A DNA stretch of 64,000 nt from Massalongia carnosa (taxonomy: Eukaryota): the NCBI GenBank assembly GCA_965645245.1, contig OZ287079.1:1364001-1428000 (forward strand). Reading direction: 5' to 3'. A program made the position numbers and the translations under genes. The stretch's first letter is position 1; each line of letters begins with the position of its first letter. Under the pieces are notes generated by a model. It did no database searches. It saw only the letters and a program-made list of their open reading frames with translations, and was not told the origin of the DNA. This document shows, piece by piece, positions 1,652 through 53,839 of this stretch.

Positions 1652-3701
1652 AATGACAAATCTGAGTTGATTCACTTCGAAAAGTCAAGAAATGCATCAA
1701 AAGACAAAGTGAAATTCCCAAACGGCACAATACTAGAACCGAAAAATTCTGTCAAATGGTTATGAGTCTGGTTAGATCGAAAACTAAATTACAAAAAACA
1801 CGTCGAAACACGAATTGCTTCTGCAAATCGATCGTTTTTCGCAATTACAAATCTGATGAAGTCTGAATGGGGACTAAAGCCAACTGCATGCAGACAGCTC
1901 TATTTGTCATGCATTATTCCTATTTCGGACTATGGCTCAGAAATCTGGTATAATGGTCAAAAGAAATATGAAAAGCTATTTCACAATCTGCAAAATCGAA
2001 TGATTCGAAAGATTTTAGGCATATTCAAAACCACGCCTGTTCAGGCGATGGAAATTGAATCGCATATTTTACCAGCCAAGCTACGATTGTTGATGAAAAA
2101 TCAAAAATACGCGATTCGATTATTGAAGATTGCCAAAAATAATCCTATTTGTCATAGAATTCCCAGTACCTATTCGGTGAAATTCGAAAACATTGGTTTT
2201 GACACTAGTTTATGGAACAACAGATATGCTGAATGGAACGAAGACGAGAAAAAATCGAGTAAACCTCATCCTAGTCAGCTTATCCGTATTCTTCATTCCG
2301 TTTCGGATATAGTTCACAAAACTGAGGAATTCGAATCAGTAAATAATTTCATCCAACCATGGAAGCCGTCTTGTAAAATCAAGTTCCAAATCGAAAGATC
2401 AAAAGAAACAGCAAAGTCAAGTTATTATTCGACTTTATCAAAAATTCAATCAATAAACGCCGATAAATCGCGAGTGTTACTCTATACCGATGGATCAAAA
2501 ACCGAGTTTTCAACTTCACCTGTCACATTTGCACCAATTATGCGAAATTGGAACAATTTCACCGATAACTTCAATCGTTTTATCGAAAAAGATTGTCTTC
2601 TCAAACATCATACGATTTCGAAAAGCTGGAAATTAAACAAACAGTCAAGCGTTAAAAACGCTGAACTGTATGCGATACTACAAGAAATAAAATGGGCATA
2701 CAAATTGACAAGAATATTCTCTCCAATTTAGAAGAAATGATTTGGATTTTTTCCGATAGCATAAATGCGATAAACGAAATTCAGAACTTGACAAATCATA
2801 CTTACGCAAAACAAATTCGAAAATTCTCGAAATGCTTATTCGGAAACAATTATCAGGTGGTTCTACAATGGATTCCTAGTAATTCGAAAATCGTCGAAAA
2901 TGAAATTGTAGATAAAGCAGCAAAAGCGGGACATAGTCGGTCGAATCCTAGTCGAGTCTTCGATAATAATATTTGATTATATAAAGGGTCAAATAAATCG
3001 AAATATGTTAGCCACATGGGCGAATCAATGGCAACAATGCAAGTCAAAATGCAAATACTATGAGAAATTCGAAATGCAGCCGGGCAAATCGAGTTTTTAT
3101 TATCTGTCGAATAATTGTTCTAAATTAATATTTGCAACTATTATGCAAATGAAATTCGGACACGGTTATTTTCGATCATATCTGCACCGATTGAAAGATT
3201 ATAATTCGTCAAAATGCACAGGGCGCTGCAACGAACGTCAAACGCCAGAACACTTATTGATGAATTGCATACATTATTCCAATGAAATCCTAAATATGAA
3301 ATAAAATATCGATAGCACAATTACTTTAAAAATGTTTCTTAATACTAGGATCGGAAATAATATTTTGATTAAATTTATTGTTGATAACAAAATCGCGACT
3401 AGAAAATGGATGCTAGGTCAGCTCGATGACGAAAATATCGAAACGGGAGGTTGGGGAGAGATCGTACAGTAAAATTAGAAATGATTTATGCTGGAATATT
3501 CACGAGCTTTACAAAAACATATTGTAAAATCGATATTTCGATTACTAAAGTTTGTTACTAACACGGAGTAAAAACGGGGCAATATTGACGATACATAGTT
3601 GGGTTATAAAGGGTTGATTTATTTGTAAAAAAAAAACATATCTTAAAATAGTTTAGTGTCATAACCTTAGGTTGAATACACTTAATGAATAAATAAAAAA
3701 A
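1652..3701 (+). mobile_element. 5'-truncated Tad1-like LINE (end of RT, RNase H, CCHC), frameshifted
   Basis: Near-identical to 13410-15462; RNase H motifs LYTDGSK, AELYAI, IFSDS, QWIPS; CTGRC..EHLLMNC; ends in AATAAATAAAAAAA. Confidence 0.93.
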
Positions 3702-3838
3702 ATATTCGTAAAGTATCGGATTACTTGGTTTTCTTCCTCAAAAAGTTTTCCATGTATTATATAATCCTTTAGACTCGCCCGAATAGGCCGGCCTTCGGCC
3801 GGTACCACATCGGAATAAGACTTATCATCATCATCATA
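3702..3838 (+). mobile_element. Short 3' end of a second LINE family (double stem-loop plus (ATC)n tail)
   Basis: GCCCGAATAGGCCGGCCTTCGGCCGGT followed by ATCATCATCATC; same motif at 5546(-), 22066 and 46328. Confidence 0.7.
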
Positions 3839-3918
3839 ACCTTAGATTAAATACTCTTAATAGATAAATAAATAATAAACAGCTGGATCGGACAAAGCGA
3901 TTATCTATATAGACTCCT

Positions 3919-4065
3919 CTAACACGGAGTAAAAACGGGGGAAAATTGACGATACATAGATGGTTTATAAAGGGTTGATTTATTTGTATTATAGAAACAT
4001 ATCCTAAAATAGTTTAGTGTCATAACCTTAGGTTGAATACACTTAATGAATAAATAAATAAATAA
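3919..4065 (+). mobile_element. 147-bp 5'-truncated retrocopy of the LINE 3' UTR
   Basis: Matches 3558-3700 and 15318-15460; (AAAT)n tail; 13-bp TSD TATATAGACTCCT at 3906-3918 and 4066-4078. Confidence 0.85.
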
Positions 4066-8823: not shown

Positions 8824-9302
8824 ATGATTGGAATAACTACGTTGAAAGTTTATACAAACGACAATCAAAAGGATATCATTAACCATATTATCCTATAGAC
8901 TGCAAAGGGCAGTGTGAAGGGGAGGAGGGCTATTAGCTCCTGCACCAAATTCTAGTGTGTAGTCCAATTCTTTCGGGGTTCAAAGTTCGGCACACTATTT
9001 TGCAAACTGGTGTACGTTAAAACGCAATTATTATAATAAAGAAATTTTATAAACGTTATTCGAATAAGCTTCAATAATTTACATCCATTGTTATCAATAA
9101 TTTACTTGAAATTAGACCTTAATAAAGAGAGTTATTGCCATGATAAAATTTCCACATCAACCTGGGGTGCCACCTTTGCCAAGGCAAGGCAGGTTTACAG
9201 TGCCGTAGTGCGTCCGGCCATGACATATGGGTCAACCGTATAGCACATGCCCAAAGAAGTCAAAAAGTCAAAGACGTCAACGAGCAAGCTCTCCGTGTAA
9301 TT

Positions 9303-9472
9303 TGTAACGGTTCGACCAAGCGTGGTGCGGACGGCAGGACCTACAGCGATCATAGCAGGAGTCCCAGTTATAGTAGAATAGAGCTTGGTCTGCGGACTAA
9401 GTATTGTGCCTTTTGGTCGGGAGGACAGGTAGCGCAATAGTAGAAATCTATTCACTATCTCGCTTCGTCACA
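9303..9472 (+). mobile_element. Solo LTR of the TRIM family, inside a probable ~400-bp solo LTR (9296-9861)
   Basis: Matches 53269-53439; TSD TAATT. Confidence 0.9.
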
Positions 9473-10173
9473 TAATTCGCGGGCTCCATCGTGTCAGCTG
9501 AACAAATATAATTTCTATCTATGTTTGGGCAACTCTCCCCTCGCTGCTGCCCTGCTGGCGCTCAGATTTGCTGAGGGCCCCTCCTATAATAGCTTTGTTT
9601 CAGTAGAAGTGAGAGGGGGAAAACTCCATCTACCTATGCGGCTGACTTAGGGAGTTAGTGGGTGGGCAAAGGACCTTTTTTTGCTGATCTCCGAATCAAT
9701 AGTGATGATGAGGAGAAGAGTGCCAAAAGGCCATCTATTTATGCCCTTTCTTTCCCCTCCTTGTCCAACTATTTGGACATCATCCTCCTTCGGCCTTTGT
9801 TGGCTATCCACGGCCTTGCCTCTACTCGGTCCCGTCATTACCTTTCGCCCTAGCCGAATTACTCATGTAAATAATTGCCTTTGCACTATAGCCGGTGCCT
9901 TTAAAGCCACTCCTATCTCAGTACTAGAAGTAGAGATATTCATAGCGTCTATAGACACGAATCTCGACATGGCATAAGCATAGGCAAGGCACCGGCTCCG
10001 AGGCTGAGGCTAATTGATGATCATCTCCTCCGCATGCAACAAAATAACTGACAAACTTCTAGGCAAGGCAGGTCGCAAACGACTTCAAAAGCCCACCCTG
10101 GGAGAGCCGAAACACGTCTGGACTAAAAGCCTACTGATCGACTCAAAAATAGTTAAACCATCAAAGGCACACC

Positions 10174-10741
10174 TATGACGAAGCGAGATAGTGAATAGAT
10201 TTCTACTATTGCGCCACCTGTCCTCCCGACCAAAAGGCACAATACTTAGTCCGCAGACTAAGCTCTATTCTACTATAACTGGGACTCCTGCTATGTTCGC
10301 TGTAGGTCCTGCCGCCCGCACCACGCTTGGTCGAACCGTTATACTACTGCCCGTCTAGCTGCGGCTAGCCCCTAGCCGCTTCCAGTTATAGTTAGCCCCG
10401 AAGAATGGGCTCTTCTTAGCGTACCGCCCTCGCCGATCCGACTTAGAGAGTTTTCATCCAACCCTTTCCCGTTTCGTCCTAGCTTCAGTCCGTCGAAGCA
10501 AGGCGAAAAGCGAGGAACTCAGGTCAGGAATCGAACTCACGACTAGTACACCGATTGATGACTAAGTATTTTATAACGAAGCGAGATAGTAAATAGATTT
10601 CTACCATTGCGCTACCTGTCCTCCCGACCAAAAGGCATAATACTTAGTCCGCAGACCAAGCTCTATTCTACTATAAATAGGACTCCTACTATGTTCGCTA
10701 TAGGTCCTGCTGTCCGCACCACGCTTGGTCGAACCGTTACA
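10174..10741 (-). mobile_element. Complete TRIM copy
   Basis: Two ~168-bp LTRs plus ~230-bp internal region, reverse complement of 53269-53839; TSD ACACC/ATACC. Confidence 0.9.
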
Positions 10742-11526
10742 ATACCAACCATGGTTCGAAGTCTACCCGGCGTAGCATCGCGAAGCTACCGTTGCGGCAA
10801 CGGCCCGACACTAGCAGATGCAATTAATTAAAGCACAACAAATAAAGGTCTGGAACGACTCGTGGTGGGCATATCAAAATCGCGTCAACGAACCATCCCA
10901 CGCGCGTGACAGAAACAGGCGGACACCAAAATAAGCATCACATTTACTATCACATTATTATATATCGGTCCTCCTCCTTCTACACCATCGGTCCTCCTCC
11001 TTCTACACCATCGGTCCTCCTTCTACACCATCGGTCCTCACCACGGAGACGCCAAAGGCCTCACCGTGGAGCGACCGACAAACATAGATTTGCTCCTATC
11101 TTTTCGCATCAAAACAATGCTAATTTAACGCGTTCACACGCGTCGCAGACGTACGTACGGAAGAGGATACGAAGGCCAACCGCCGGGGGGTAGAATGCGC
11201 GCGTCCCTGCACCATGCTTCTAAGGGTTCAAGTCCCTTCATGCAGTCATCAGCTGGAAGAAGATGTGGACCAAAGGAGCCGCATCATCCCCCACCCGGGC
11301 ACAATCGACACGCGTTCTAGCTCCTGAGAGTTCAAGTCTCCCCATGCAGTCATCAGCTGGGATCAACAGAACGCGTAAAGGCACCGGGGCGAATGCTGTC
11401 ACCTCAAGAAAACTCCATCTTGGAGCAGAATAACAATATCCCATTTAATAGGCCCGGCCTGTTAAATAAAATCGAGGAAAACACAGAGTCACAAAACACA
11501 TATTTATCAATCACACGTTGTACAAA

Positions 11527-11670
11527 GCACACAGTCACAAAGCACACAGTCACAAACATACAGTCACAAACACACAGTCAAAAAACACACAGTCACAAAA
11601 CACACAGTCACAAAACACACAGTCACAAAACACACAGTCACAAAACACACAGTCACAAAAAACACAATCA
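11527..11670 (+). repeat. 15-bp tandem repeat (ACAAAACACACAGTC)n, about 9 units
   Basis: Directly visible. Confidence 0.95.
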
Positions 11671-12820
11671 CAAATCAATAACACGTCCCTGTGAAGGGGG
11701 TTCTGCGGGGGCTCGTTAAGACAGATCTGCACCCCGTTAATATCGGCGTACATATTTTTAGAGGTTCAAGTCCTTTCTAGCAGTCATCAGCTGAAAATGA
11801 TGCATTTTGACACGGGCATGGTGTGGATTTGACACGGGTAGACCTCGATGGATCACAAAACGAATGAAAAGAGTTCAGCGGAACTTCGTTAATATTGTTC
11901 TCGAAGACCTCGTTAATAAGATTTTCATAGACCTCGTTAACAACGTTCAGTCATACTCTTAAAGGTTCAAGTCCTTTCATGCAGTCATCGGCTGAGAGCT
12001 AAAGACGTACGACACGGGTCAGCTATGTCTGTCACACGGGTCTCCTTCGTCTACAACACGGAGCCCTCCGGCTGAAAGAAATAAAACATATAGACACATA
12101 GTGTAGGGTCACACCCTACACGATACAAGGGATTTGGGTTATGAAAACCATCCGATTGATGGCTACCGTGAGCAACACGGCCCGAACCGGAGTCGTACCG
12201 GGGATGGTAGAGGCAACCTAGTCATCAAATAGGACACCCTTGGGACAAGAAGAGGGCAATATACGAGGAACCCGTTAATTGATAACAGTCTAGGCCCTGA
12301 GCTAATAGACGAATTTCAAACGAGCACCCCTCCGAGTTGTCCTCGACTCGTTTTGGTTAGTAGGGACGGAAAATCGATACTATACTGCCTGGTCAGGAGC
12401 ATAGTAGTCGAAATCCCTGCGAGACATGGTCGGTTCATAAACGGGAGACCTTTATGAATAACGCGAAGTGGGCGTAAAAAACCCGTGAGGCGTGGTATAC
12501 AATGGCGGCCACCGTACGGAGACCGTCTGCATAGCCCGAGAGGACAGTATGCGCATGTCGGTGTATATAGAGCAGGGAATGTCTATCTCGCTCGTAACGA
12601 GACCCCGTCGGTTCGCCGGCGCATGGGCTACGGCTAGACTCGCCCTTGATATATGCTTAAGGAGTAAACTGGGTTTGACCTGGGCGAAAGGGACGTCGTT
12701 CACCCCAATCGTAGAATTCATCAATAATCTTGGGCCGTAAAACGCACCAGTGAGATGAACGAAAACTGGGATAGAGACTTCACGAAGGAGAGAGATGTCA
12801 ACTCTATTTTATCATTCTTA

Positions 12821-15232
12821 GCCTTACTGAATTGTCTTGGTAAAATTGCGGAGAAAATAGTTGCTAATCGACTAGCCTACCTCGGCGAAAATTCGAGCTT
12901 GTTAGATACCGAACAAATGGGCGGACGGAAAAATCATTCTGCAATCGATGCGGTAATGAACGTCGTTCATGATATCGAAATCGCAAACCGAAACAAAAAC
13001 GTTTTATCATGTCTATTACTCGATGTCAAAGGAGCATTTGACTTTGTTTCGATTAATCAATTGCTAAATGTTATGAAAAAGCTGCATTTATCTCGCACAG
13101 TTATTCAATGGGTCAAGCATTTTATGACAGAACGATCGATCAATTTGATATTCGATGAACACAAAAGCAAAACGTACTATATCGAATCTGGAATTCCACA
13201 AGGTTCACCAATTTCGCCAATTCTATTTCTGATTTATATTCGTTACTTATTTCCGAAAATACGAATGAAATTCAATGCTCATTCACCTAGCTTTATAGAC
13301 GATGTTGCAATATATGTCGAAAATAAAACTGCCATACAGAATTGGAAAGAAATCGAAATTATCGTCAAAACAGCTTTTGATTGGGCCGCAACGAATAATG
13401 TCAAATTTGATGACGACAAATCTGAGTTGATTCACTTCGAAAAGTCAAGAAATGCATCAAAAGACAATGTGCAATTACCAAACGGGACAATACTAGAACC
13501 GAAAAATTCTGTCAAATGGTTAGGAGTCTGGTTAGACCGAAAACTAAATTACAAAAAACACGTCGGAACGCGAATTGCTTCTGCAAATCGATCGTTTTTC
13601 GCAATTCAAAATTTGATGAAGTCTGAATGGGGACTAAAACCAACTGCATGCAGAAAGCTCTATTTGTCATGCATTATTCCTATTTCGGACTATGGCTCAG
13701 AAATCTGGTATAACGGTCAAAAAAAATATGAAAAGCTATTTCAGAATCTGCAAAATCGAATGATTCGAAAGATTTTAGGCACATTCAAAACGACGCCTGT
13801 TCAGGCGATGGAAATTGAATCGCATATTTTACCAGCCAAGCTACGATTGTTGATGAAAAATCAAAAATACGCAATTCGATTATTGAAGATTGCCGAAAAT
13901 AATCCTATTTGTCAAAGAATTCCCAGTACCTATACGGTGAAATTTGAAAACATTGGTTTTGACACTAGTTTATGGAACAACAGATATGCTGAATGGAACG
14001 AAGACGAGAAAAAATCGAGTAAACCTCATCCTAGTCAGCTTATCCGTATTCTTCATTCCGTTTCGGATATAGTTCACAAAACTGATGAATTCGAATCAGT
14101 AAATAATTTCATCAAACCATGGAAGCCGTCTTGTAAAATCAAGTTCCAAATCGAAAGATCAAAAGAAACAGCAAAGTCAAGTTATTATTCGACTTTATCA
14201 AAAATTCAATCAATAAACGCCGATAAATCGCAAATTTTACTCTATACCGATAGATCAAAAACCGAGTTTTCAACTTCCGCTGTCACATTTGCACCAATTA
14301 CGCGAAATTGGAACAATTTCACCGATAACTTCAATCGTTTTATCGAAAAAGATTGTCTCCTCAAACATCATACGATTTCGAAAAGCTGGAAATTAAACAA
14401 ACAGTCAAGCGTTAAAAACGCTGAACTGTATGCGATACTACAAGCAATAAAATGGGCATACAAATTGACAATTGAGAATATTCTCTTCAATTTGGAAAAA
14501 ACGATTTGGATTTTTTCCGATAGCATAAACGCGATAAACGAAATTCAGAACTTGACAAATCATACTTACGCAAAACAAATTCGAAAATTCTCGAAATGCT
14601 TATTCGGAAACAATTATCAGGTGGTTCTACAATGGATTCCTAGTCATTCGAAAGTCGTCGAAAATGAAATTGCAGATAAAGCAGCAAAAGCGGGACATAG
14701 TCGAATCCTAGTCGAGTCTTCGATAATAACATTTGATTATGTGAAGGGTCAAATAAATCGAAATATGTTAGCCAAATGGGCGAATCAATGGCAACAATGC
14801 AAGTCAAAAGGCAAATACTATGAGAAATTCGAAATGCAGCCGGGCAAATCGAGTTTTTATTATCTGTCGAATAATTGTTCTAAATTAATATTTGCAACTA
14901 TTATGCAAATAAAATTCGGACACGGTTATTTTCGATCATATCTGCACCGATTGAAAGATTATAATTCGTCAAAATGCACAGGGCGCTGCAACGAACGTCA
15001 AACGCCAGAACACTTATTGATGAATTGCATACATTATTCAAATGAAATCCTAAACATGAAACAAAATATCGATACCACAATTACTTTAAAAATGTTGTTT
15101 AATACTAGGATCGGAAATAATATTTTGATGAAATTTATTGTTGATAACAAAATCGCGACTAGAAAATGGATGCTAGGTCAGCTCGATGACGAAAATATCG
15201 AAACGGGAGGTTGGGGAGAGATCGAACAGTAA
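12821..15232 (+). CDS. LINE ORF2 portion: reverse transcriptase, RNase H, CCHC (endonuclease missing)
   Basis: ALLNCLGK, LDVKGAFD, GIPQGSPISP, FIDD, WLGVWLD; RNase H AELYAI/FSDS/WIPSH; first ~22 aa of the track ORF (12755-12820) come from the foreign segment. Confidence 0.95.
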   Translation, partial: ALLNCLGKIAEKIVANRLAYLGENSSLLDTEQMGGRKNHSAIDAVMNVVHDIEIANRNKNVLSCLLLDVKGAFDFVSINQLLNVMKKLHLSRTVIQWVKHFMTERSINLIFDEHKSKTYYIESGIPQGSPISPILFLIYIRYLFPKIRMKFNAHSPSFIDDVAIYVENKTAIQNWKEIEIIVKTAFDWAATNNVKFDDDKSELIHFEKSRNASKDNVQLPNGTILEPKNSVKWLGVWLDRKLNYKKHVGTRIASANRSFFAIQNLMKSEWGLKPTACRKLYLSCIIPISDYGSEIWYNGQKKYEKLFQNLQNRMIRKILGTFKTTPVQAMEIESHILPAKLRLLMKNQKYAIRLLKIAENNPICQRIPSTYTVKFENIGFDTSLWNNRYAEWNEDEKKSSKPHPSQLIRILHSVSDIVHKTDEFESVNNFIKPWKPSCKIKFQIERSKETAKSSYYSTLSKIQSINADKSQILLYTDRSKTEFSTSAVTFAPITRNWNNFTDNFNRFIEKDCLLKHHTISKSWKLNKQSSVKNAELYAILQAIKWAYKLTIENILFNLEKTIWIFSDSINAINEIQNLTNHTYAKQIRKFSKCLFGNNYQVVLQWIPSHSKVVENEIADKAAKAGHSRILVESSIITFDYVKGQINRNMLAKWANQWQQCKSKGKYYEKFEMQPGKSSFYYLSNNCSKLIFATIMQIKFGHGYFRSYLHRLKDYNSSKCTGRCNERQTPEHLLMNCIHYSNEILNMKQNIDTTITLKMLFNTRIGNNILMKFIVDNKIATRKWMLGQLDDENIETGGWGEIEQ

Positions 15233-15517
15233 AATTAGAAATGATTTATGCTGGAATATTTACGAGCTTTACAAAAACAAATTTTAAAATCGATATTTCG
15301 ATTACTAAAGGTTGTTACTAACACGAAGTAAAAACGGGGCAATATTGACGATACATAGTTGGGTTATAAAGGGTTGATTTATTTGTAAAATAAAACCATA
15401 TCTTAAAATAGTTTAGTGTCATAACCTTAGGTTGAATACACTTAATGAATAAATAAAAAAAAACACCAAAATAAGCGAATATCATCAAATTTGAACTTGA
15501 TACCATCTACAAAACAG

Positions 15518-16633
15518 TTACCATCCAGTCATCTTGCCATTCATGTCTAAAACGTCATCTATTCTTTTAGGCATTGATTCGATCCATTCATTAATCGTTT
15601 CCTGAGAAAGACTGACCCAACCCGCCTTAATTGCAGCTATTGTGGTGTCGTCATCCCAATGAGGTTGACGACCTACCCGTTGTTTGGGCACCTGCCAGCA
15701 ATTTTCGATAGGAGAAAGATCAGGAGAACGAGGGCAGTTGAAGTAGTATTTTAGCCCATGCTCGTCCTTCCATCTTCGTACAATATTGTCCTTCCCCGAT
15801 CCATGTCCTGAATCGCCATCTTCTTCCAACACGAAATTCGAGTCTGTTTCGAGCCATGTTTTTACTACCGGTTCCAGAATGAAGTCAATATACACCTTCT
15901 GACTCATCTTTCTATTCGAATTGCTGGGAACCTCATAAAAAATCAGCTCTGATTTGAAGTTCTACCCCACAGCAGCCCAAAAATGATATCGTTTCTGTTT
16001 TTTATCCTTCTCTTCAGGCTCATGTTGTTCCTGAATGCAGTCCTGACACGTACGCTCGCCAGGTTTTCGAATGATGCGTAGTCTTCGTTAAGGTCCTCGT
16101 CCGAAATGAACTTCATCGGAAAAGCGAACTCTTTTCCAATCATTTAACGAGTATGTGTTTCGTTTGTTCCAAGCCCAGTCCTTTCGTGCAGTCATCAAAT
16201 CTTTCGGGACGTAGGTTTTTGTGCATGCGAGACATTTACGATAGTTTCGTTCATGCATCGCTCGTTGTATAGTACGCCAGGAGACGGAGGAAGTCTCAGC
16301 AGCTGCACCCAGTTGATTCCAGGTCAGTGATCTTCCCTCCAAGCCCCAGGTTTGCAATATTTCATCCATACGATCTATCTGCTTCTTTGACAATTTACGA
16401 GGCTGACCACGAGTCTCCGATTTGTTTGTATGACCATGCCGTCGATTAGTTTCTTGATCGTTGAGTATTTCATAACCTCGAGTATGTCCCACGCCGAAAA
16501 ACTCGAAAACCTCTCGCTTTGAACGCAAAATTCCTTTCGCCTGCAAAAATTCAACAGTACCCTGAACTTTCGCCTTCGTAGGAGTGGCATGCTCGGTATT
16601 TATAGTGATTCGTGACTCTAGAACAGGCTCCAT
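15518..16633 (-). pseudogene. DD37E transposase with premature stop
   Basis: VRFSDEVHF, EEDGDSGHG, SPDLSPIENCW (37 residues between second D and E); TAA at 16088-16090. Confidence 0.9.
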
Positions 16634-16940
16634 TGCTTATAAAGAATTGATAAATGTGTATATATACGATGTAAAAATTAAAAAACTAAGGAGTAGGTGG
16701 TGCGGGGAAATTTTGGTGTCCGCCTGTTTCTGTCACGCGCGTGCCTCCATAGCACAATCAGTTCCACTGAGCAAAAAACGGCTGAAAATACATACGCAGC
16801 TAAAAAAGGCAGAAAGCGCTCTAACAATACAAATCCGCACTGGCAAGATCGGGTTAGCTGACTTCTTCTGTAAGCAACGGGTGCCCTCCGTCACCTTACC
16901 GGCCTGCTCATGTGGCTGGCGCAGACAAATTCCAGAATAT

Positions 16941-19881
16941 TGTGGTAGGGCGACATGTGTCATCTATAGTCAGGTGACATTGCAGGCCTTTGTGGGGATA
17001 AAACGGGTTTTTTGCTGGCGTTTTCTTTATCATCTCCGGACATCATCTTCTATTACCTAAGCTGTCATCATCATCGTCGTGTCACGTAGTCATTGACACA
17101 CGTTCATTTCGTGCATCAACTAGTCGTTCAGTCGTTCAGTCGTCGAGTTCTTTTCATGTCTATGCAGTCGTAGGTCTATTTAGACGTTTGTGTGTGTATA
17201 TGTATGTGTTCACTGCTCAGTTCGCCATCTATCATCACGTACCACCATCTTCCATTAGCATGCACGATTACCCTTCTACATTGGCGACCACGGTGCGATA
17301 TATAATTGTACTAGTGCACTTAAGCGGTTGAACTAAGCATCAAACGTCGAAAAACCTCCTTGTTTTGCACCTCTGATCACTCTGACTACTCCACCTCCGA
17401 CCGTGCACGATCGAGTCCTCCCATATCAAATCAAGCATTATGGCCCCCATCAGCTTTTTCACCTTTTCGACCTCCGCTACCGCTACCGTTACCGTTTCAT
17501 CGACTGCATGCGTTCCAGACGTCCATTTCTGGGAATAGCTAGTCGTTTTATTCACTGCACTGATGGCCATTATCTCGTGCTGCACCTTCTGCTTTTGGGC
17601 CAATCATGTGACCGTGACCTACAGGACTAGTTTGACTGCACCTACTCCGTCATCAGTAAAACAATCACGTCAGCGAAGACGAACGAAACGTGGCAGGCCT
17701 AGCAAAAGAGCCTCCGTTTCGACCTCCGAGTCGTCCGAGTCGTCCGAGTCGTTCGAGTCATTCGAGTCGTTCACGTCTATCACTAGTTTACCTTCATCTC
17801 CACCTTTACCTTCATCTACAAATTCACCTCTGAACAAGCGACAACGTCGTCATCTGCCGAGAAAGCGACAGCAAAATAGCCCGTCTATCTCCGTGTCGAG
17901 GGCATCGTCTGTCAGTTTATCAGCACCGTTAGTATCATCATCAACTGCCTCGGTTGCATCCATAAGGTCATACATGAGCATGGAGGAATTGTTCGCGAAA
18001 TATGGGGCACAAAAGGCCTATATGGCCCATACAAACTGTCCAAAATCGCTGCCTATTTGTCCAGCAGTCGCCGTGTCACTACCGGTCACTATGTCTGCAC
18101 CGTCTGCACCGTCTGCACCGTTCATGTCCGCACTATCCACCGCACCACCGTCACCCGTTACCGCTTTTCGTTCTGCCGTGTCTTCGGCACCTGTCATCAC
18201 CGCTATCGAGTCAGCTGACACTGAGTCAGCAATTGAGTCATCTACACGTGGGCCGGAAGGGCCAAAATCAGCAATTTTACGTTCAGCACCTGGTTCTAGC
18301 ACTGAGCTAGCGCGGGCCGGGGAAAGGCCGACCACTGAGTCCGCTGCGTCTACTGTCACTGCGTCTGCTGACACTAAGTCAGTTATTGAGTCATCAAAAA
18401 AGGGGCCGGAAAGGCCAAAATCAACATCATTTCATTCAGCCTCTGCGGTCAATGTAGAGCTAGCTATGGCCGGACGTCTTCCGGACGTCAGCTACGTCGA
18501 AATTGACGACTATTTAGCACCTTCTCGTTCAGCATCACCGTCCCGTTCAGCGTCATCTTTTCGTTCAGCACGTTCAACAAATTCAGCATCATCATTCGTT
18601 CAATCAGTGACCTTCGTTTCGTCAAATGTCTATGAATATCTGTCTACTTTGTCGCTCATTCAGTCATCTATCTCTCGTTGAGTACTAGGGTTTTTATATT
18701 TGCAGGCCTCGACCTGGATAGTTCCTATGTGTCGACTGTTCAGCCTTCCCCTTTCGGAAGCCCTAAATCAACTAGCAGGTGCTGATAACACGAAAATAAT
18801 GCTGCACACTGTCGTGGGTCGAGAGATGTTGACCGAGTTTCTGACAAAAGTGAAAGAAATTCTCGCACGGTCATCAGCTAGTGCCACCGTGTCAGCCAAT
18901 CGGGTGATGTCGTTTCCACCTCCATGTAGGTCAGGGCCATGGCAGTCAAACCGAGCTAGGCACGAACGGGCTAGACGTGCAAAACGTACGCGCTGGATAC
19001 TACCTGCACCTCTGGTTTCATATTGTTCCACTCCATTTGACAGGCCCGGCCTATCTAATCAGTCAGCGTCAGCAACAGCACCGTCAGCATCTCCGTCGTT
19101 ATCATCAGCCCTACCAGCTGCACCACCGGTTGATGACTTGCCATTACCTGAAACGGTCACGTCGTCAACATTTGAGGCCTATCGGGCGAGCGGTGCGTTT
19201 ATTCCGCCTCAGGCTAACTCCATATAGTCGTCCGGATCACCGTCAACAGACCTATCAGTCAGTCAACAACGGTTTATTCAGTTCGTGTCCACCCCCGATG
19301 GCTTGCAGGTAATAGTGACGATGATGGAGGCTATTCAGCAGCGGATAGGGGTCGATGTGAGTTGTGTTTTTCACATGTGACTTGATCATATGAGCTGTAA
19401 TTGGCCCGCAGGGCAGACTAGTGAGGCGGATAGACTAGAGGCGAGGCGAGGGCTCAGAGACGAATTCTGATTGGTCAGGAGAGGTGAGCTGGCGAAGTGT
19501 TGACAGATGCCAGGGGACGGCATCTTTGGGGTGTGAGGCTATGTGGTAGGGCGACGTGTTTTATCTATAGTCAGGTGACATGGCAGGCCTGTGTAGGGAT
19601 AAAACGGGTTTTTTGCTGGCGTTTTCTTCATCATCTCCGGACATCATCTTCTATTACCTAAGCTGTCATCATCATCGTCGTGTCACGTAGTCATCGATAC
19701 ACGTTCATTTCGTACATCAACTAGTCGTTCAGTAGTTCAGTCGTCGAGTTCTTTTCTTGTCTATGCAGTCGTAGGTCTATTCAGACGTTTGTGTGTGTAT
19801 GTGTATGTGTTCACTGCTCAGTTCGCCATCTATCATCACGTACTACCACCTTCCATTAGCACGCACGACTACCCTTCTTCA
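16941..19881 (+). mobile_element. Non-autonomous LTR element (340-bp LTRs at 16941-17280 and 19542-19881) with Ser/Pro-rich ORFs
   Basis: TG..CA direct repeats; TGGCGACCACGG PBS-like after 5' LTR; flanks ATAT/ACAT; no RT/IN motifs seen. Confidence 0.9.
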
Positions 19882-21861: not shown

Positions 21862-22905
21862 ACTAGCATCAAAATTATTGTACAATCAACAATAGTTGAA
21901 CGTTTCGTTCTTTCTTCTCATTTCACAAGGCATTAGAGTTCCTGGACGTCTTTTGCACTGCGTCTCCCGCCCGACGTCAACCCGTAGTCACATCGGATTG
22001 GTATCAAGGGATATGGTTTTTACACTTGTGAAAGGTATTCTATGTAATATAACTTAGATAGCTTTGCCCGCACGGGCCGGCCTACGGCCGGTATCTTTTC
22101 GAAGTAGGAATATATTATCATCATCATAATCATGATTTGCAAACTCTATTTGCTTTTTTTTCAACCTCATTTGCAAATTTTATTAATAAGTAGATATATA
22201 TCAATTGCGCGTTCTGATAGTAACTCCTGGTCTGACGATAGCCCCCTTGATAAAAGTTAGACTGCTCATCCTTATAACCCTTATCACCTTTATTATTCTC
22301 ATTATTCTCAGTGTTGAGCTCTGCAAGGATATCTTGGATAGCCTTATTATGCTAATGCTTATATGTTGAAAGACGCCCACATTAAGGGATTGCATACAAT
22401 GAGTCAGATGTGGTATCAGGGGGAGAAGGCGAATGTAATTTTTTATTGGCAAGCTTTATTAACTCAGGGGTGCAATGAGTCCTATGATTATTCATGAGCA
22501 TCAATTTCTACTGCTTTGTAGGCCCCTAGTCTGTATTCGCAATGAAATACTTTAAAAACTTAATGACTATTTCATCGGTGATGAACCGAATTTCTGATAC
22601 TTCAATCAGAGTCCCCGTGGGCAGCCCTTCTTGGAACCTGTTCTGCATTATTCTACGACCTTGCATGATTAAAATGGGAGAAGGTGGTTGGTTGATAAAT
22701 AGCGGTGTTGATGATTTCGATTATGATGAGAGATTTGCGATTTTCTGAACTGATTGAATAGAACTCCTTAATATCTGTAATGGGCTACGAGACCAGTAAG
22801 CTAATCACGAGCGACACTGATCTCGAAAGGGGAAATGCTCAGCCTGAGAGGTATTATGATCTACCTAGAGACAAGTCATAGGGACACTAGAAACGAATAC
22901 AATAA

Positions 22906-25565
22906 GAGTACGGATACATGGACACCCCTTTAGTTACCTAGACACTCCCCTGGGTTACCTATATACCCCCCGATGATACTCAGACACCCCTCCTATAATA
23001 GGTAAAGATTAAGGGTCATGCCCTACCGCTTACCTGCATCGGGGTAGTGAGGGGGCAATTTCTTTGGCACCTGAAATTTTTTCCTTTTTTCGAATGTTAG
23101 CAGCCGATCGAGAATGATTGAAACGGAGTCGATTGGCACTGTCTTTGCAAACCAGACAGTGATTTGATACGAGCTAAACCTCATTTGGACTATCTACAAT
23201 GATCAAGTCATCTTCTTCGCTTGTTGCCCGTTCTGACGTTGCTGTCCTCTTCTTTGGCCGACCTGTCCGACCTATCCGCCCTGCCGGTGCCCGTCATTTC
23301 GTCGTTGCCTTTGCCCCCCCGGACGTAGCTATCCTCGTTACCCTCGTTGTCCTTGGTGTAACTTTATCTTCCCCCCCTCGTCTTCCTCGTCTGCCACCTC
23401 GTCTGCCACCTCGGCCGCGACCCGGTGCCGAGTCCGCTCGATGCACTGCCAAATGCGTCTCCGGTTCCGCCCGTTCGAAAAGCGATGGTTCTCGATTTGT
23501 GGATGCGTCGAATGCTTGCTGTCTTCTATTTCCCGCACCTTGTGGACGCCCTCGAGTTCTTGCAACTTCTGGTTCTTGAATCAGAAGATGGGGATTATCG
23601 ATCTCGACGCGAGGCAGAACTTGAGTTCTATCAAATCTACATTTCAAGTCAGCTTCATCAATCTAGAAAGTTAGAAAGTTGAGTACTACCTCCAATGTGA
23701 ATGCACATCTTCGATCAACAATCTGCCACCCTCATACAGCCGTTGCTGAATCTTGTGACTGCATGGAAGACCGGTAGTCAGCGTGAAGGTTTGAGTGCAG
23801 GCCGGCAGGGCTGTTGGTCTCTCAATGAGTCGAAGATACTGAGGGAGTATCTTTCTCAAGGCGTATGGGGTGATATATGGTGCCTCTTCTTGAAAGATTG
23901 GTTTACGAAGACTCAAAGGAAGTCGTACTTTAGCCTCATCAAGATTGATCAGATAGTTATGTAGCTCATTGATCAGCAGCAAATTGATTCCGTCCACCAC
24001 TGTCTTGAGATCTCCGGATGAGGATCCCAACTGTCGTTTCAGAACCGCATGCCCGCCTTCTCCGCGAGAGGTGGTTGTCGTCTCGAAATGCAAGATCGTA
24101 TTGGTATAGCACTTGACAAAGCGATGCCGAAAAGAAGAGACATAGGTGGAGTCCAGATACTCAATGCAATTTCCCTGATATTGCAGACTAAACCGCTCCC
24201 ATGTCTCCCGAAATTCCGTTTCCGAAGATGCGTATATCACTGACTTCCAATCTGCGAAGAATCGATCCCAAGATTCTTTGGAATCGAAATGCTTCTTACA
24301 ATTGACTAGGACATTGTTGTTAATGTGCCAAAGACAAAGCAGATGATTGGTTATAGGCAAAACAGTCTCAATTGCAGACATCAGACCTCTTTCCATGTCG
24401 GTGACGATAACCGTCGGAGTAGGAAGCTCCAAATTCACACACAAAGCTTGCAATTGCTGCAGAACCCATGTATAATCAGAAGTCGTTTCTTTGGCCATGA
24501 AACAAAACGCCACATAGAAGTTGGAATGTAATGCCGTCTGACCACTGATAATCAAAAGTGGCATTTTGTAGCGATTCGTTTTGTATGTGCAGTCCATCAC
24601 CAACACCTCGTAATTGGTCTTCAGAATTCTTTGAGAACTGCCCTTTATGAAGAATAAATGACTGATCTGATTGAGATGATTCTTCTGCACATTGTATACC
24701 CAATCTCCTTGATCCAACTCGCGAATCAATGCCTGAACGGGAGTCAATGGACCGAGGGCTTCGCGACGTAGCTGCGCCTTGACATTGTAAATGTCTCGAG
24801 GTTTGAACATTGGATTGACGATGACGGGATCTTCGGGATCTTCGTGATTGACTCCAGTCATCGGGTCAGGAATTCTGAGACTTGAAAGAATTCTAGAAGG
24901 TGCCGTCTGCACTGTCAGCGCTCGAGAGATCTCGCTCTTAACCTCTGATGTCATCGCCAGCTTCCTTAATGCAGGATGGGCGCCGGCAAGTGTGGCGGAA
25001 TGATTATGTCCCGGTGTGATGACCTCCAAGAACCAAATTCCATTCTCATTTTCGCGCTTCGCAACGCAGGAAAAAGGGCACTCAATCCGTCTGCTGCTTG
25101 TATGTCGCCGATCCTGACCAGTCGGTCCATTGGATTTCCTGCCTCGGTCGCAGACCAGCCAAGCCTTTCTCGTCACCTTGAGTTTCGACTTCTTGGTCCG
25201 GCCCAAAACAACGGCATATCCTTGACGGCCGGCATGCTCGTTGACGCGAAGAATGAGGTCTTCCAAACTTTCGAAGCTTTGTCCATCTTCAGGAGGAGCG
25301 AGTCCACCAGGTGGTAGAGAGGTCGACATCGGATAGATGAAGTTCAAGTGGCAGAAGAATTTCGTGTGCCAACATTCGAAAAAAGAAAAAATTTTCAGGT
25401 GCCAAAGAAATTGCCCCCTCACTACCCCGATGCAGGTAAGCGGTAGGGCATGACCCTTAATCTTTACCTATTCTAGGAGGGGGGTGTCTGAGTATCATCG
25501 GGGGGTGTCTAGGTAACCCAGGGGAGTGTCTAGGTAACTAAAGGGGTGTCCATGTATCCGTACTC
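22906..25565 (-). mobile_element. Mutator-like element (MULE) with ~200-bp TIRs and 8-bp TSD
   Basis: GAGTACGGATACATGGACACCCC... inverted at both ends; TSD TACAATAA at 22898-22905 and 25566-25573. Confidence 0.95.
23294..25329 (-). CDS. MULE transposase (FAR1/WRKY-like and DDE domains), predicted intron 23637-23689
   Basis: CPF..HNH, MDCTYKTNRYKMPL, VTDMERGL, CLWHI, TTSRGEGGH, GLPCSH; GTAGTA..GCTGAC..TAG intron joins HWR to FDRTQ..RGRP; TGA at 23294 may be premature (frame continues to 23174). Confidence 0.92.
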
Positions 25566-27134
25566 TACAATAAAGATGAAGAAGGAAATAGACAATCGAC
25601 AACCAGAACCTGCCCCTATATATCCTCTACTGCGCTAGTACCCATGTGGTATAGTCGTCATGGAACCTTCTAGCAGCTGCGGGAACGAAATCGAAAGCGC
25701 CTGCGTGTTCCATCTACGATTGCCCTAGGCGGTGCCGAGTGCCGAGGTCGTGCCGTGTAGAATCGTGACAAGAGGTGGAAGATAGCTACTACGTGCTGGT
25801 CTCCGAGAGTATATGTGGTCTAAAGAACTAATGGGTATGGAAGTGCTCAGATAAAGAGATCTCGTCCGAGACCCAAACGTAGGTTGTTCATAGAATAAAG
25901 ACCAATTGCTAACGAATATTACAGGATTCGTTCTGGTATTTATCCTACTCACCCCAAGCCTATAGGCTTGGGAGCCTTGGAACCTTAGGAGCCTTGCAAC
26001 CTACTTCTGACCTTATCGCCTTACATCTAACCATCCCTCAGGATCCATCTACGAACTTGGCGTTCGCTGGATCATCTAGTCAGCCTCGAGCAGCCTTCTA
26101 GACCTTCCCTTGCAAGGTAGAACACTTCTACCTCCGGCTAGATCCCTCACTACATTGCTAGCCTGCCTCAAAACATAAAGTCTAGACGCCGAGGCTATGT
26201 AGCTTCATTTCGCCGTCACCACTACCAACGTAGCGATGGAAGGTTACCTCCGACTGAATCTCTATCTACACTGCGGACCTGCCTCTAGACACAAGGTCTA
26301 GACCACAAGGTTATGTAGGCTCATTCAGCCGACATCACTACCAACGTAGCAATAAAGGTTGAAGCTGAAGTTTACACCAGGGAGGCCGAGCTCAAGCTGC
26401 GTCCAGCTTGCCGTGCCTCCTGCTACAACTCTTGATCCATCAAGAGATCGAGTAGCTCCGAGTAGGCCTGTAGATTCCATATAGAGTTCACGGCTTCTCC
26501 ACAGGAGTTCGCCTTACTCCATGGCAATCTACCACCACGGCCTCGACAGGTGTTTGATCTGTAAGCAGTCTAGAACGTAGTAACAACTAATTCGGAGTTG
26601 TGTGGCAAGGTGGCGTCGTGTCAACCTCGATGGCTGTGGGACTAAGTACTACGGCCTGGCTCATGCTAGTTAATCCCGCAACCGCCGTAGGCGACCACGT
26701 ATCCTTCTAGCGCCATCCGTATTACAATATCTGATAGAACTAGAATTTCATGACCCTTCATACACTCAACTCAAAATCCTGCTTCATCACAGTTCCAGAT
26801 ATCTTGTGAACGAGTTATCCCCAACTCCGCAAGAACCTGCTGATATCGATCAAACCATGATCTCATATCTGACTCCTGAGCCGCAGTATATCGAACAACT
26901 TCCAGCGGCTTGGTCTTTATCTTGTGCAGGCCATTGTCTTTCTACTATTGCCTAAACTACCGTGGACTTGGATTATTGAATTCGGCATCTTGAGCACGTT
27001 TCGGAGTCTTAATGGCAGCAAAAACCACTTTATGAGTAGGTTGAATGCCACACGCAATCAGAGATGGAATGAATTCGTGAATGGCTCTGACCTGATGCTC
27101 CTTCAGTATTTTGTTCTACCCTTCAATTTACTTC

Positions 27135-27376
27135 TGTCACGATTCTACACGGCACGACCTCGGCACTCGGCACCGCCTAAGGTAAGAACATGCAGGCACT
27201 TTCGATTTCGTTCCCGCAGCTACTAGAAGATTCCATGACGACTATACCATATGGGTACTAGCGCAGTAGAGCATATATAGGAGCAGGTTCTGGTTGTCGA
27301 TAGTCTTTTTCCTTCTTCATCTTTATTGTATTCGTTTCTAGCGTCCCTATGACTTGTCTCTAGGTAGATCATAACA
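27135..27376. mobile_element. Family-B solo LTR (opposite orientation)
   Basis: Reverse complement of 46693-46943; TSD ACTTC. Confidence 0.9.
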
Positions 27377-27922
27377 ACTTCGACGGCGTCTTTTCACGTT
27401 CAATTGAACTGTATAGACTGATGTCGACGAGGTTGAAGATTCGAGCAGCGCAAACGATGCTCTCCTTGGGGTTTTCTAATAAAAACTTCTTAGCATTTTG
27501 CATGCGCGTTGCAATAGAATCACTGGTTTTAATAAGGTTTTTATTTATGATGCTGCTGCTATTCATGATTGAGGTGGAGAGCGGTTGATAAAATAGGGAA
27601 GAGAGTGATTGACGAAATAGGAGGCATGCAACTGATGCGGTCGCGATTGAATAACGATGAATATCCCGGTTAATCAATGAGTGATTAGGATGTGCAGATG
27701 ATATCTATCTATGGTATAAATAATAACAGCTAACGGTCGTAGGTTGCGGTTGAGATGTATTGCAAAAAGCTGCCAAATAGGTGGTAAAATGGGTGAATTT
27801 AGACAAATCCTGAAATTGAAACTACGCAGACCGCTTTCCCCGACTAGAGGTGCACAGGTGGTACCCCTCGTATGGAGGTAGCTAAGCGAGGCCGACGATT
27901 ACTTGAATTCTATAATTATATT

Positions 27923-36880: not shown

Positions 36881-37537
36881 TACGCCGCGCACCGGGTCGG
36901 GTTTCTCTACTGAAAACCCAACCCGTTTGTGGCGAATCCTATTATTTTTGGTGTCCGGGTTGAGTTTTCAGAGAAAAACCCGGTGGCGAAAAAGTAATTT
37001 TGTGGCGAAAACCCAACCTATTGCGCGGCGTAGGTTAAACCCGTCGGGTTTGTATCGGGTTGGACTCCCTCGAACCCGACCCGACGGGTACGGGTTTTTT
37101 ATGCGGGTTTCCGGGTTAAACCGTTCAACCCGGTCAGTTTTTTCTGCTAAGTAAATATGAAAATTCGACGAAAATATGCCGTTTAAAGAGCTATAATTTT
37201 TGCTTACTAATTATTATTTCTTGATGACTAATTTTCAGAATTTTCAGAATTTTCAAATGTGTTTAAAACGTCTAAAAAAACACATTTAAATTGATATAAA
37301 AAATTGTGACGAAGCGAGATAGTGAATAGATTTCTACTATTGCGCTACCTGTCCTTTACCAAAAGGCACAATACTTAGACCGCAGACCAAGCTCTATTCT
37401 ACTATAACTGAGACTCCTGCTATATTCGCTATAGGTCCTGCCGTCCGCACCACGTTTGGTTGAACCGTTATACTACCGCCCGTCTAGCTGCGGCTAGCCC
37501 CTAGCCGCTTCCAGTTATAGTTAGCCCCGAAGAATAG

Positions 37538-37773
37538 TGTTGAATGTTCAACTTCTACCAGCATTGCCTTGCCGATAGATTAGATAAGATCAGATCTAAT
37601 CTAATCACATAGAGGCTCGGATAAACTATTATCATCTCGCTTAGGAGAGGTGACCAACATAAAAGGAACAGATCGCTCTGCACTCCGTAGCAACTCTGCA
37701 TCCTTAACATCATGGTTATACAGGCCCCTATCTTTACATATTCATATAGCCATAGTCATAGATATATTCAACA
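37538..37773. mobile_element. Family-C solo LTR (236 bp, TGTTG...CAACA)
   Basis: TSD AATAG; inverted copy at 57854-58089. Confidence 0.9.
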
Positions 37774-38132
37774 AATAGGCTCCTCTTAGCGTACCGCTCT
37801 CGCCGATCCGACTTAGAGAGTTTTTATCCAACCCTTTCCCGTTTCGTCCTAGCTTCAGTCCGTCGAAGCAAGGCGAAAAAGCGAGGAACTCAGGTCAGGA
37901 ATCGAACTCACGACTAGTATACCGATTGATGACTAAGTATTCTGTGACGAAGCGAGATAGTGAATAGATTTCTACCAATGCGCCACCTGTCCTCCAGACC
38001 AAAAGGCATAATACTTAGTCCGCAGACCAAGCTCTATTCTACTATAACTGGGACTCCTACTATGTTCGCTATAGGTCCTGCCGTCCGCACCACGCTTGGT
38101 CGAACCGTTATACTACCGCCCGTCTAGCTGCG

Positions 38133-39162
38133 TGTAATACGGATGGCGCTAGAGGGATACGTGATCGCCTATGGCGGTTGCGGGATTAACTAGCGTGGAC
38201 CATGCCGTAGTACGAAGTCGCATAAGCCGTCGAGGCTGACACACTGCCATCTTGCCCCGAAACTTCGGAGTTATTGTTATCACGTTCTTGACTACTTACA
38301 GATCAAACACCTGTCGAGGCCGTGGTGGTAGATTGCCATGGAGTGTAAGGCGGACTCCTGTGGAGACGCCAAGGAACTCTATATGGGATCTACTGGCCTA
38401 CTCGGAGCTACTGGATCTCTTGATGGATCAAGAGAGGTAGCAGGAGGCACGGCTCGCTGGACGCAGCTTGAGCTAGGCTCCCTGGTGTAAACTTCAGCTT
38501 CAACCTTTATTACTACGTTGATAGTGATGTCGGCTGAATGAACCTACATGACCTCGTTGTCTAGACCTTGTGTTTAGAGGCAGGTCCGCAGTGTAGCGAG
38601 GTATTCAGTCGGAGGTAACCTTCCATCACTAGGTAGTGGTGACGGCGAAATGAAGCTACATAGCCTGAGGCATGTAGTGAGGGATCTAGCCGGGGGTAGA
38701 ATTGTTCTACCTTGCAAGGGAAGGTCTAGAAGGCTGCTCGAGGCTGACTAGATGATCCAGCGAACGCCGAGTTCGTGGATGGATCCTGAGGGATGGTTGG
38801 ATGTAATGCGATAAAGTCGGATGTGGATTGCAAGGCTGTAATGCTCGCAAGACTCCCAAGGCTTGCAAGGCTCCTAAGGTTCCAAGGCTCCCAAGGCTAT
38901 AGGCTTGGGGTGAGTAGGATAAATATCAGAACGAATCTTGTAGTATTCGTTAGCAATTAGTCTTTATTCTATGAACAACCTACGTTTGGGTCTCGGACGA
39001 GATCTCTTGGTCTAAGCACTTCCACATCCATTAGTTCTTTGGATCACGTATACTCTCGGAGACTAGCACGTAGTAGCTATCTTCCTCCTCTCACGCTGAG
39101 CATTTCCCCTTTCGAGATCAGTGTCGCTCGTGATAAGCTTACTGGTCTCGTAGCCCATTACA
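38133..39162 (+). mobile_element. Family-A solo LTR (1030 bp)
   Basis: TGTAAT...ATTACA, TSD CTGCG; near-identical to 49500-50529. Confidence 0.9.
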
Positions 39163-46383: not shown

Positions 46384-46692
46384 ATTACTCAGTCAATTCT
46401 AGTCCAAAAAGGTAATTTTTTGTCATTTTATAGCTCTTATTCTGAAGTACTTTGTGATATAATATACAAAATTTGTAACTAAGACTGAAGTTTATATCTT
46501 GATCCGACAGAAACCCGAAAATTTGTCAAACGGTCACTCTAAAAGTGTAGAGCGCTTCGAGAGCAGTAAGTTAATCACGAGCGACACTGATCTCGAAAGG
46601 GGAAATGCTCAGCGTGAGAGGTAGAAGATAGCTACTACGTGCTGGTTTCCGAGAGTATACGTGATCCAAAGAACTAATGGATATAGAAGTGC

Positions 46693-53268: not shown

Positions 53269-53839
53269 TGTAACGGTTCGACCAAGCGTGGTGCGGACGG
53301 CAGGACCTACAGCAAACATAACAGGAGACCCAGCTATAGTAGAATAGAGCTTGGTCTGCGGACTAAGTATTGTGCCTTTTGGTCGGGAAGGACAGGTAGC
53401 GCAATGGTAGAAATCTATTCACTATCTCGCTTCGTCACAGAATACTTAGTCATCAATCGGTGTACTAGTCGTGAGTTCGATTCCTGACCTGAGTTCCTCG
53501 CTTTTTCGCCTTGCTTCGACGGACTGAAGCTAGGACGAAACGGGAAAGCGTTGGATGAAAACTCTCTAAGTCGGATCGGCGAGGGCGGTACGCTAAGAAG
53601 AGCCCATTCTTCGGGGCTAACTATAACTGGAAGCGGCTAGGGGCTAGCCGCAGCTAGACGGGCGGTAGTGTAACGGTTCGACCAAGCGTGGTGCGGACGG
53701 CAGGACCTACAGCAAACATAGCAGGAGACCCAGTTATAGTAGAATAGAGCTTGGTCTGCGGACTAAGTATTGTGCCTTTTGGTCGGGAAGGACAGGTGGC
53801 GCAATGGTAGAAATCTATTCACTATCTCGCTTCGTCACA
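53269..53839 (+). mobile_element. Complete TRIM (571 bp; 171-bp LTRs at 53269-53439 and 53669-53839)
   Basis: TG..CA, TSD GCATC, purine-rich AGACGGGCGGTAG before 3' LTR; removal restores QWHPIAFWS. Confidence 0.95.

Follow-up and report, generated by a model that had tools for sequence, protein, structure and literature searches.

A 4.5-kb insert at 10937-15462 lies within a 64,000-nt stretch of Massalongia carnosa DNA (contig OZ287079.1, positions 1,364,001 to 1,428,000 of the forward strand; hereafter the window), between the two copies of a 14-bp target-site duplication (TSD). The insert consists of a 5′ part that is not derived from a long interspersed nuclear element (LINE), which we call the head (10937-12823), followed by a 5′-truncated LINE encoding reverse transcriptase (RT) and RNase H (12824-15462). 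We consider it probable that this insert is a bipartite chimeric retrocopy formed when RT jumped from a LINE template to a complete non-coding RNA. In this respect it would resemble MINE of Magnaporthe grisea/oryzae, which joins a full-length 1113-nt non-coding RNA called WEIRD to a 5′-truncated MGL LINE (Gogvadze et al. 2007, PMC2104539). A first-pass annotation of the window had proposed that the segment upstream of the LINE was a captured RNA, possibly of viral origin.

Boundaries of the insert and the head-LINE junction

The two TSD copies (ACACCAAAATAAGC) are identical at 14/14 positions, and an exact word search revealed that this is the sole word of at least 10 nt shared between 10880-10960 and 15420-15500. 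Since a single TSD flanks both the head and the truncated LINE, their integration as one unit is supported. Both the TSD, with its right copy correct to within 1 nt, and the single event had been put forward in the first pass. We also aligned contigs from four sequencing runs to 10400-16000, and what we say of these contigs rests on the matches listed. In one X2 contig the two flanks meet directly, with no insert between them (10927 to 15469); this gives weak support, since the contig's shorter side is 26 nt and it lies 1 nt off the exact TSD offset. Run X7 lacks cover at 10774-10960 and beyond 15636, and these gaps were not used as evidence. The segment is richer in guanine and cytosine (0.481) than the LINE (0.343) or the window (0.461), and it matches nothing else in the window, as had been noted before: blastn at word size 9 found just repeats internal to the segment, and nhmmer with a profile of the head's core found one copy only. 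The region around the insert is a dense nest of repeats. The parts of the insert are as follows.

10923-10936, no strand: left copy of the TSD, ACACCAAAATAAGC (exact word search)
10937-10963, + strand: AT-rich 5′ leader of the head; in L003, a related metagenome locus described below, the repeats likewise follow a similar AT-rich stretch
10964-11039, + strand: 23-nt tandem repeats, 3.4 copies (repeat search)
11041-11069, + strand: hairpin CCACGG..CCGTGG, -16.0 kcal/mol (folding)
11217-11259, + strand: three-way-junction module 1, with a closing stem, a T-arm-like hairpin (GGTTCAAGTCC) and the hairpin CAGU-CAUCA-GCUG
11321-11363, + strand: three-way-junction module 2
11478-11674, + strand: CA-rich 15-nt tandem array, 13.2 copies (repeat search)
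11755-11797, + strand: three-way-junction module 3
11956-11998, + strand: three-way-junction module 4
12045-12823, + strand: conserved structured core (nhmmer E 1e-168; fold and covariation; 3′-end alignment)
12823-12824, + strand: head/LINE junction (sequence reading, run contigs, P0007 protein)
12824-15462, + strand: 5′-truncated AT-rich LINE (open reading frames (ORFs), Pfam, protein relatives)
15463-15476, no strand: right copy of the TSD (exact word search)

The stuttered ~23-bp repeats, the hairpin and the CA-rich repeats that the first-pass annotation had pointed out are all real. The leader at 10937-10963 may be part of the head RNA or may have been added at integration.

The head meets the LINE exactly at 12823|12824, without microhomology; the earlier placement inside the RT coding region was right, and its position (~12821) is corrected here. 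The junction falls on a codon boundary of LINE ORF2 (TTA CTG AAT TGT, encoding LLNC). A native LINE protein, P0007, which is 98% identical to the window RT, reads ...KSYRIITLLNCLGK; in the window, LLNCLGK starts at 12824 and the sequence upstream of it is unrelated to P0007. Among the matches listed, X5 and X7 contigs that reach 12824 from the right carry the LINE's own upstream sequence, while an X7 contig that reaches 12823 from the left runs on into other sequence. Together, P0007 and these continuations place the join at 12823|12824. The only contig to bridge it, among the matches listed, comes from X1, which is probably the window's own source. Reading of the sequence revealed neither an internal TSD nor an A-run at the junction. 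Since the native LINE reads ...ACA before 12824, the template switch site would be ACA|T.

The LINE part lacks ORF1, the endonuclease and the N-terminal part of ORF2. Its frame is open to 15232, and Pfam identified RVT_1 at 12818-13531 (E 1.2e-31, from profile position 12) and RNase_H at 14369-14695 (E 2.2e-08); a 3′ A-run occupies 15455-15462. The full-length relatives P0005 and P0007 carry Exo_endo_phos, which is missing in the window LINE. The nearest LINE proteins are unnamed fungal sequences (86-98% identity), and named relatives come from Lasallia pustulata and Sclerotinia, which points to an ascomycete host, probably one associated with lichens. The window also holds a second 5′-truncated copy of this AT-rich LINE at 1655-3702 (96.5% identical), followed by two further partial copies of its last 45-144 nt (3834-3878 and 3919-4062).

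The LINE frame stays open back through the final 96 nt of the head (12728-15232, + strand; ATG at 12755). Because of this, the head-internal ATG could start an 825-aa RT/RNase H protein without an endonuclease, although the continuity of the frame is probably fortuitous.

A family of heads with a constant 3′ end

The head is a repeat found well beyond the window. Its 31-mers were present in runs labelled as four organisms and a lichen metagenome (shares of 0.49-0.98, five studies). Distinct contigs covering the head numbered 45 in X2 and 5 in X5 at 11667, and 27 in X2 and 1 in X5 at 12499; in these two runs the head reached roughly half the summed depth of the LINE part. X7 has an 8164-nt contig that contains 11027-12823 of the head at 98% identity (27 differences over ~1.7 kb) in an independent context, not joined to the window's LINE.

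Scanning metagenome contigs with a degenerate module consensus yielded seven loci (L001-L007); an exact 22-mer of the core had given 0 matches in a first metagenome scan. Six of the seven (L001 and L003-L007) contain both modules and the 3′ core (window ~12100-12730), at 68-75% identity. The head is 1887 nt long in the window and ~1.15-1.27 kb in the metagenome loci. The window head is longer because of its additional modules and the 15-nt CA-rich array, an expansion that is absent from the metagenome relatives and is 60 nt shorter in the X7 copy. All related heads except L006 start with tandem repeats (units of 23-34 nt) whose unit sequence differs between loci. By eye, a comparable inverted sequence follows these repeats; L006 has neither repeats nor inversion.

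The 3′ end of the head lies at the same nucleotide in the window, where the core ends ...ATTCTTAGCC, and in all four of the contigs that extend past the head (L001, L004, L005 and L007). These constant ends read ...TTCTTGGC, ...CTCTAGC and ...TTCTTAGCC (variants ...CTTGGC/...CTAGC/...TTAGCC). Past this nucleotide, the window and the four contigs diverge completely, each entering a LINE in sense orientation at a different point.

Window: LLNCLGK
L001: RKHGATF
L004: immediately before GFMDDVNILV
L005: a CCHC zinc-knuckle, ORF1-like frame
L007: CEEWARRHGAKF (CEEWARRHGA)

The X7 contig, which comes from another organism, adds a sixth point to these five. The frame in L007 aligns to window ORF2 residues 218-374 at 28% identity (E 3e-21), indicating that the partner LINEs are distant from the window LINE; its C-terminal region matches window ORF2 weakly (E 0.51). 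Pfam found no family at E ≤ 0.01 in the LINE-derived ORFs of the metagenome loci; the LINE nature of these bodies is read from the L007 pairwise alignment and from motifs identified by eye. A comparison of L001 with L004 gives 81.4% identity over 1151 nt for the head and 68.1% over 323 nt for the LINE part. Members of the head family are fused to LINE bodies from at least two very different lineages.

These observations cover all five structural features by which bipartite LINE chimeras are recognized (PMC2104539). The 5′ part copies another RNA over its full length, as judged from the constant 3′ end and a 5′ architecture shared by the window, L001, L003, L004, L005 and L007, the exact 5′ nucleotide being fixed, by the TSD, in the window only. 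The 3′ part is a 5′-truncated LINE, and the truncation sites differ between copies. The two parts are joined directly and in the same orientation, with the fold and an excess of G-U pairs (below) favoring the LINE-sense strand, and in the window the whole lies between short direct repeats, the 14-bp TSD.

The head is predicted to be a structured, non-coding RNA

We aligned seven core sequences (893 columns) and folded them with RNAalifold. The core (~780 nt) contains 197 predicted pairs, in which 94.0% of cells are standard pairs. Double-sided changes occur in 80 of the 197 pairs, compared to 34.3±3.9 in 500 shuffles, none of which reached the observed value; slid controls gave 13-19 such pairs.

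The segment carries a ~30-nt module word in four copies, and the entire window has 4 matches to it at ≤3 mismatches, with 0 expected. Across heads there are 2-4 copies each, and 17 copies fold as a three-way junction in which the closing stem differs in nearly every copy yet remains complementary, while the two hairpins are a 5-bp stem with the loop UUCAAGU and a 4-bp CAGU/GCUG stem. In these 17 copies, 95.5% of cells are paired and 44 are double-sided, compared to 15.7±4.9 after shuffling.

G-U cells outnumber A-C cells in both the core (172 versus 32) and the modules (27 versus 4), an excess that is partly built in, as the fold was predicted on the sense strand. The sense alignment also folds better than the antisense. 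Since both the G-U excess and the better sense fold point the same way, the RNA strand would be the LINE-sense strand. Thus, by this structural model, the head is a large, highly structured RNA on that strand.

No reading frame is conserved among the head relatives. Wherever the head sequence is conserved, frames are open on both strands, and the positions of stops vary from copy to copy. We therefore rejected coding potential, as the open frames track nucleotide conservation on both strands. The broken protein-like frames described in the first-pass annotation do exist; they are not coding. Searches with two conceptual translations of the head matched just 6 and 3 short unnamed proteins.

The head also failed to match known RNA classes. 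Rfam, whose models include ribozymes, introns, rRNA, snRNA and telomerase RNA, gave no match in the window at gathering score, and at E ≤ 10 only chance-level matches (SpR10, 24.8 bits with a cut-off of 50; sR22, 17.9 with a cut-off of 40). A short interspersed nuclear element (SINE) derived from tRNA was rejected, as ARAGORN found 0 tRNA genes, the head has a B-box-like word only, and it is 1.2-1.9 kb long. A tRNA-like minihelix was rejected because 17 conserved nt separate the T-arm-like hairpin from the closing stem. The antisense strand of the modules carries the word CUGAUGA, which is not conserved in module 4; by eye it lacks the helix II/GAAA arrangement of a hammerhead and Rfam found nothing, so this candidate was set aside. 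Telomerase RNA was rejected by eye on the 5′ regions only (cores not searched), where there is no conserved CCCTAA-type template.

A conserved word, R-CTAA-Y (GCTAAC/ACTAAT/GCTAAT), lies ~200 nt from the head 5′ end (~11115-11125 in the window; ~175-185 in L001), and an AG follows within ~20 nt. We take this word to resemble the fungal intron branch-point consensus.

Module-like sequences also occur outside heads. The remaining metagenome locus, L002, has a solitary three-way-junction module (1567-1651, + strand; unit profile E 2.8e-19), lacks a surrounding head core and carries a Cupin_2 frame 450 nt downstream; the module there may be a relic or may reflect another use. In the window, a 21-nt stretch within 16162-16212 (+ strand), inside a Tc1/mariner frame (16088-16636, - strand), matches the module's conserved part (AGTCCTTTCGTGCAGTCATCA) at 20/21 positions by eye. 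The unit profile matches 16162-16212 at E 0.002, and the hairpin stem is absent there; the stretch may be a relative or a chance match.

Origin of the insert

The combination of a fixed head end with variable LINE points argues against chance nesting, an ordinary 5′ untranslated region (UTR) and splicing, and fits an RT that abandons its LINE template and takes up synthesis again at the very 3′ end of a separate RNA, which it copies in full. A spliced (SpIRE-like) junction was also rejected because ...ACA, not AG, precedes 12824 and because head and LINE are different families. That the segment copies another RNA and is joined in sense orientation, with RT template switching as the best mechanism, agrees with the first-pass annotation, and template jumping, which we infer, is the most likely mechanism. 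Target-primed reverse transcription would start on the poly(A) end of the AT-rich RT/RNase H LINE RNA. On reaching a break in the RNA, or pausing, at LINE position 12824, the RT would jump end-to-end onto the free 3′ end of the head RNA and copy it to its 5′ end, and the chimera would then integrate. Because the head would supply a 5′ transcription unit and the LINE part a 3′ end recognized by the RT, such chimeras could act as non-autonomous retrotransposons. The RNA fold would be kept by selection on this chimera cycle or on a master gene.

Several points weigh against this account. The window junction has no microhomology, and its site, ACA|T, does not match the GCC|A/U consensus reported for switch sites on the MGL LINE template (PMC2104539). 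Five junctions were fully read, with the sixth, in X7, known from a 30-nt loose end only. Four of the five come from short metagenome contigs, which could be mis-assembled at repeats; the TSD check is confined to the window, and in one such contig, L007, no flanking repeat was found. The head RNA is known here from DNA copies alone, and no solo head gene was seen among the head copies we met. It is also conceivable, though unlikely, that the jump did not happen at this insertion and that the window copy was retrotransposed, mobilized in trans by a LINE, from a pre-formed chimeric master with the same junction. Such a master would fit the depths of the head and the LINE 3′ part in X2 and X5, which are of the same order (head about half) as expected of amplifying chimeras, the transcription of MINE copies in Magnaporthe (PMC2104539), and the open frame that runs from the ATG at 12755 in the head into RT/RNase H. 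However, among the matches listed, 12823|12824 is bridged by the X1 contig only, and the X5 and X7 pieces continue elsewhere.

If the head were a modular 5′ UTR or promoter of a LINE family, with chimeras arising by 5′-end switching or internal deletion, its variable 5′ tandem repeats would be unsurprising, as many LINE 5′ UTRs have them; the head is also seen only beside LINE sequence, and 5′ UTR cycling has been reported for RTE LINEs (bioRxiv 10.1101/2022.11.04.512097). Yet the head meets an ORF1 start in none of the five junctions, a small sample; in L005 it adjoins the C-terminal CCHC part of an ORF1-like frame, without a start codon. Moreover, the head breakpoint is constant while the LINE breakpoint varies, the partner lineages are just 28% identical in RT, and conservation is higher in the head than in the LINE part, making this explanation improbable. 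We give still less credence to two independent events, in which a LINE landed beside a head fragment already in place and the 14-bp repeat arose by chance. Although the region is a dense repeat nest, the 14/14 repeat is the sole shared word at both ends, the LINE begins exactly at the family's canonical head 3′ end, and the junction has no internal TSD or A-run; of all the explanations, we find this one the hardest to credit.

Capture of RNA from a mycovirus, a satellite or another RNA replicon, the template suggested in the first pass, is only slightly easier to credit. Such a source would be compatible with a head that is non-coding, highly structured and of no known family, and an RNA-only source agrees with our failure to see a DNA master copy; none was found for WEIRD in Magnaporthe either (PMC2104539). 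However, the head is multi-copy in the genomic DNA of several organisms, and sequences that have diverged by 20-30% keep the structure and have so far been met only as LINE fusions. Pfam found no domain, viral or other, in 10 segment ORFs at E ≤ 1 apart from two chance-level matches (E 0.1 and 0.26), and no RNA-dependent RNA polymerase, in agreement with the first-pass annotation. Two patterns revealed no true relative in IMG/VR: the module motif gave 0 matches, and the seven loci found with the core pattern all fail the profile, the best match covering 28 nt. The first-pass annotation had itself named a normal genomic repeat elsewhere as the finding that would speak against a virus, and the segment is such a multi-copy repeat. 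A viral origin of the head is thus not supported, and a template jump onto a non-viral RNA remains the reading we prefer.

More tentatively, the head may belong to a widespread, unrecognized class of structured fungal RNAs that parasitize LINE reverse transcription, with WEIRD as perhaps the sole described relative. We regard this as possible rather than probable. If so, docking to the ribonucleoproteins of different LINE lineages would be the task of the core and modules. Either the RT would then move over to the free 3′ end of this RNA, or broken LINE RNA would become ligated to it. The products would be promoter-bearing non-autonomous chimeras, through which, or even in RNA form, the family would be inherited with no conventional master gene involved.

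Surroundings of the insert

Throughout its length the window is a nest of transposable elements. The chimeric element is inserted just past the C-terminal end of a degenerate Tc1/mariner transposase, and a ~170-bp interspersed repeat (at least 10 copies, 86-98% identity, often paired) lies just upstream of the insertion site. This repeat looks SINE-like, and ARAGORN finds no tRNA in it. By eye, two frames resemble C-terminal parts of a second, GC-normal LINE family; they are similar to the LINE parts joined to metagenome heads, and L007 matches 16774-16865 at 72%.

15518-16636, - strand: degenerate Tc1/mariner transposase over two frames (DDE_3, E 4.6e-06; HTH_Tnp_Tc3_2, E 0.003)
9300-9476, 10173-10746, 37305-38132, 39163-39548, 53266-53846 and 54812-54973: ~170-bp repeat
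9651-9977 and 16566-17060, both + strand: frames resembling GC-normal LINE parts (…IAGAFKATPISVLEVE…, …IRTGKIGLADF…CSCG…)
22775-27381, 38133-39165 and 46546-50532: other repeat families, including a ~1-kb unit present in three places at 85-99% identity

Comparison with known systems

SINEs and composites such as SVA have a non-coding 5′ head and a LINE-derived 3′ end and are mobilized in trans. The elements described here share this arrangement, but they are far longer, and their LINE part spans kilobases and varies in extent. In each module there is a B-box-like word (GGTTCAAGTCC), yet neither an A box nor a tRNA fold was found. Plant RTE LINEs likewise have exchangeable 5′ modules on conserved LINE bodies (bioRxiv 10.1101/2022.11.04.512097); there, the new 5′ ends precede complete bodies, whereas the bodies here are truncated internally. 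Chimeras of U6 small nuclear RNA with L1 and other mammalian bi- and tripartite chimeras also have a full-length RNA 5′, a truncated LINE 3′, TSDs and an origin by RT template switching (PMC2104539). In those, the acceptor is a known small nuclear RNA, while here it is a 1.2-1.9 kb RNA without known cellular function.

The closest counterpart is MINE. In both systems, a complete non-coding RNA of ~1.1-1.2 kb is fused directly to a LINE of like orientation whose truncation point varies (28 different sites for MGL), the joins lack microhomology, and direct repeats flank the whole (10-20 bp for MINE, 14 bp here). In neither has a solo copy of the RNA been seen: PMC2104539 reports that solo WEIRD was not found, that its function was not known and that no relative was present in other genomes. 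MINE/WEIRD sequences are deposited in GenBank under EF585235-EF585237, as cited there. Our head is likened to WEIRD by architecture, not by sequence; two 20-nt WEIRD primers (PMC3978060) match the heads only as well as shuffled sequence does, a result that carries no information at such divergence. The systems also differ. The head occurs in several organisms and in metagenomes, while WEIRD was reported without relatives outside Magnaporthe; it is joined to LINEs of at least two distant lineages; it is modeled as a covarying structured RNA with a repeated module; and its window switch site, ACA|T, departs from the GCC|A/U consensus.

MINE/WEIRD chimeras have been little studied and so far described in one fungus. 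Our results indicate that an RNA of WEIRD-like size and behavior exists in other ascomycetes and in environmental DNA, that it keeps an elaborate predicted fold by compensatory changes, and that its partners are unrelated LINE lineages, joined at a single fixed 3′ nucleotide. For annotation, such heads should be taken as neither viral insertions nor genes. Together with MINE, they offer a testable class in which to ask why a non-coding RNA is so often the acceptor, what purpose its fold serves, and whether it gives truncated LINEs a new promoter.

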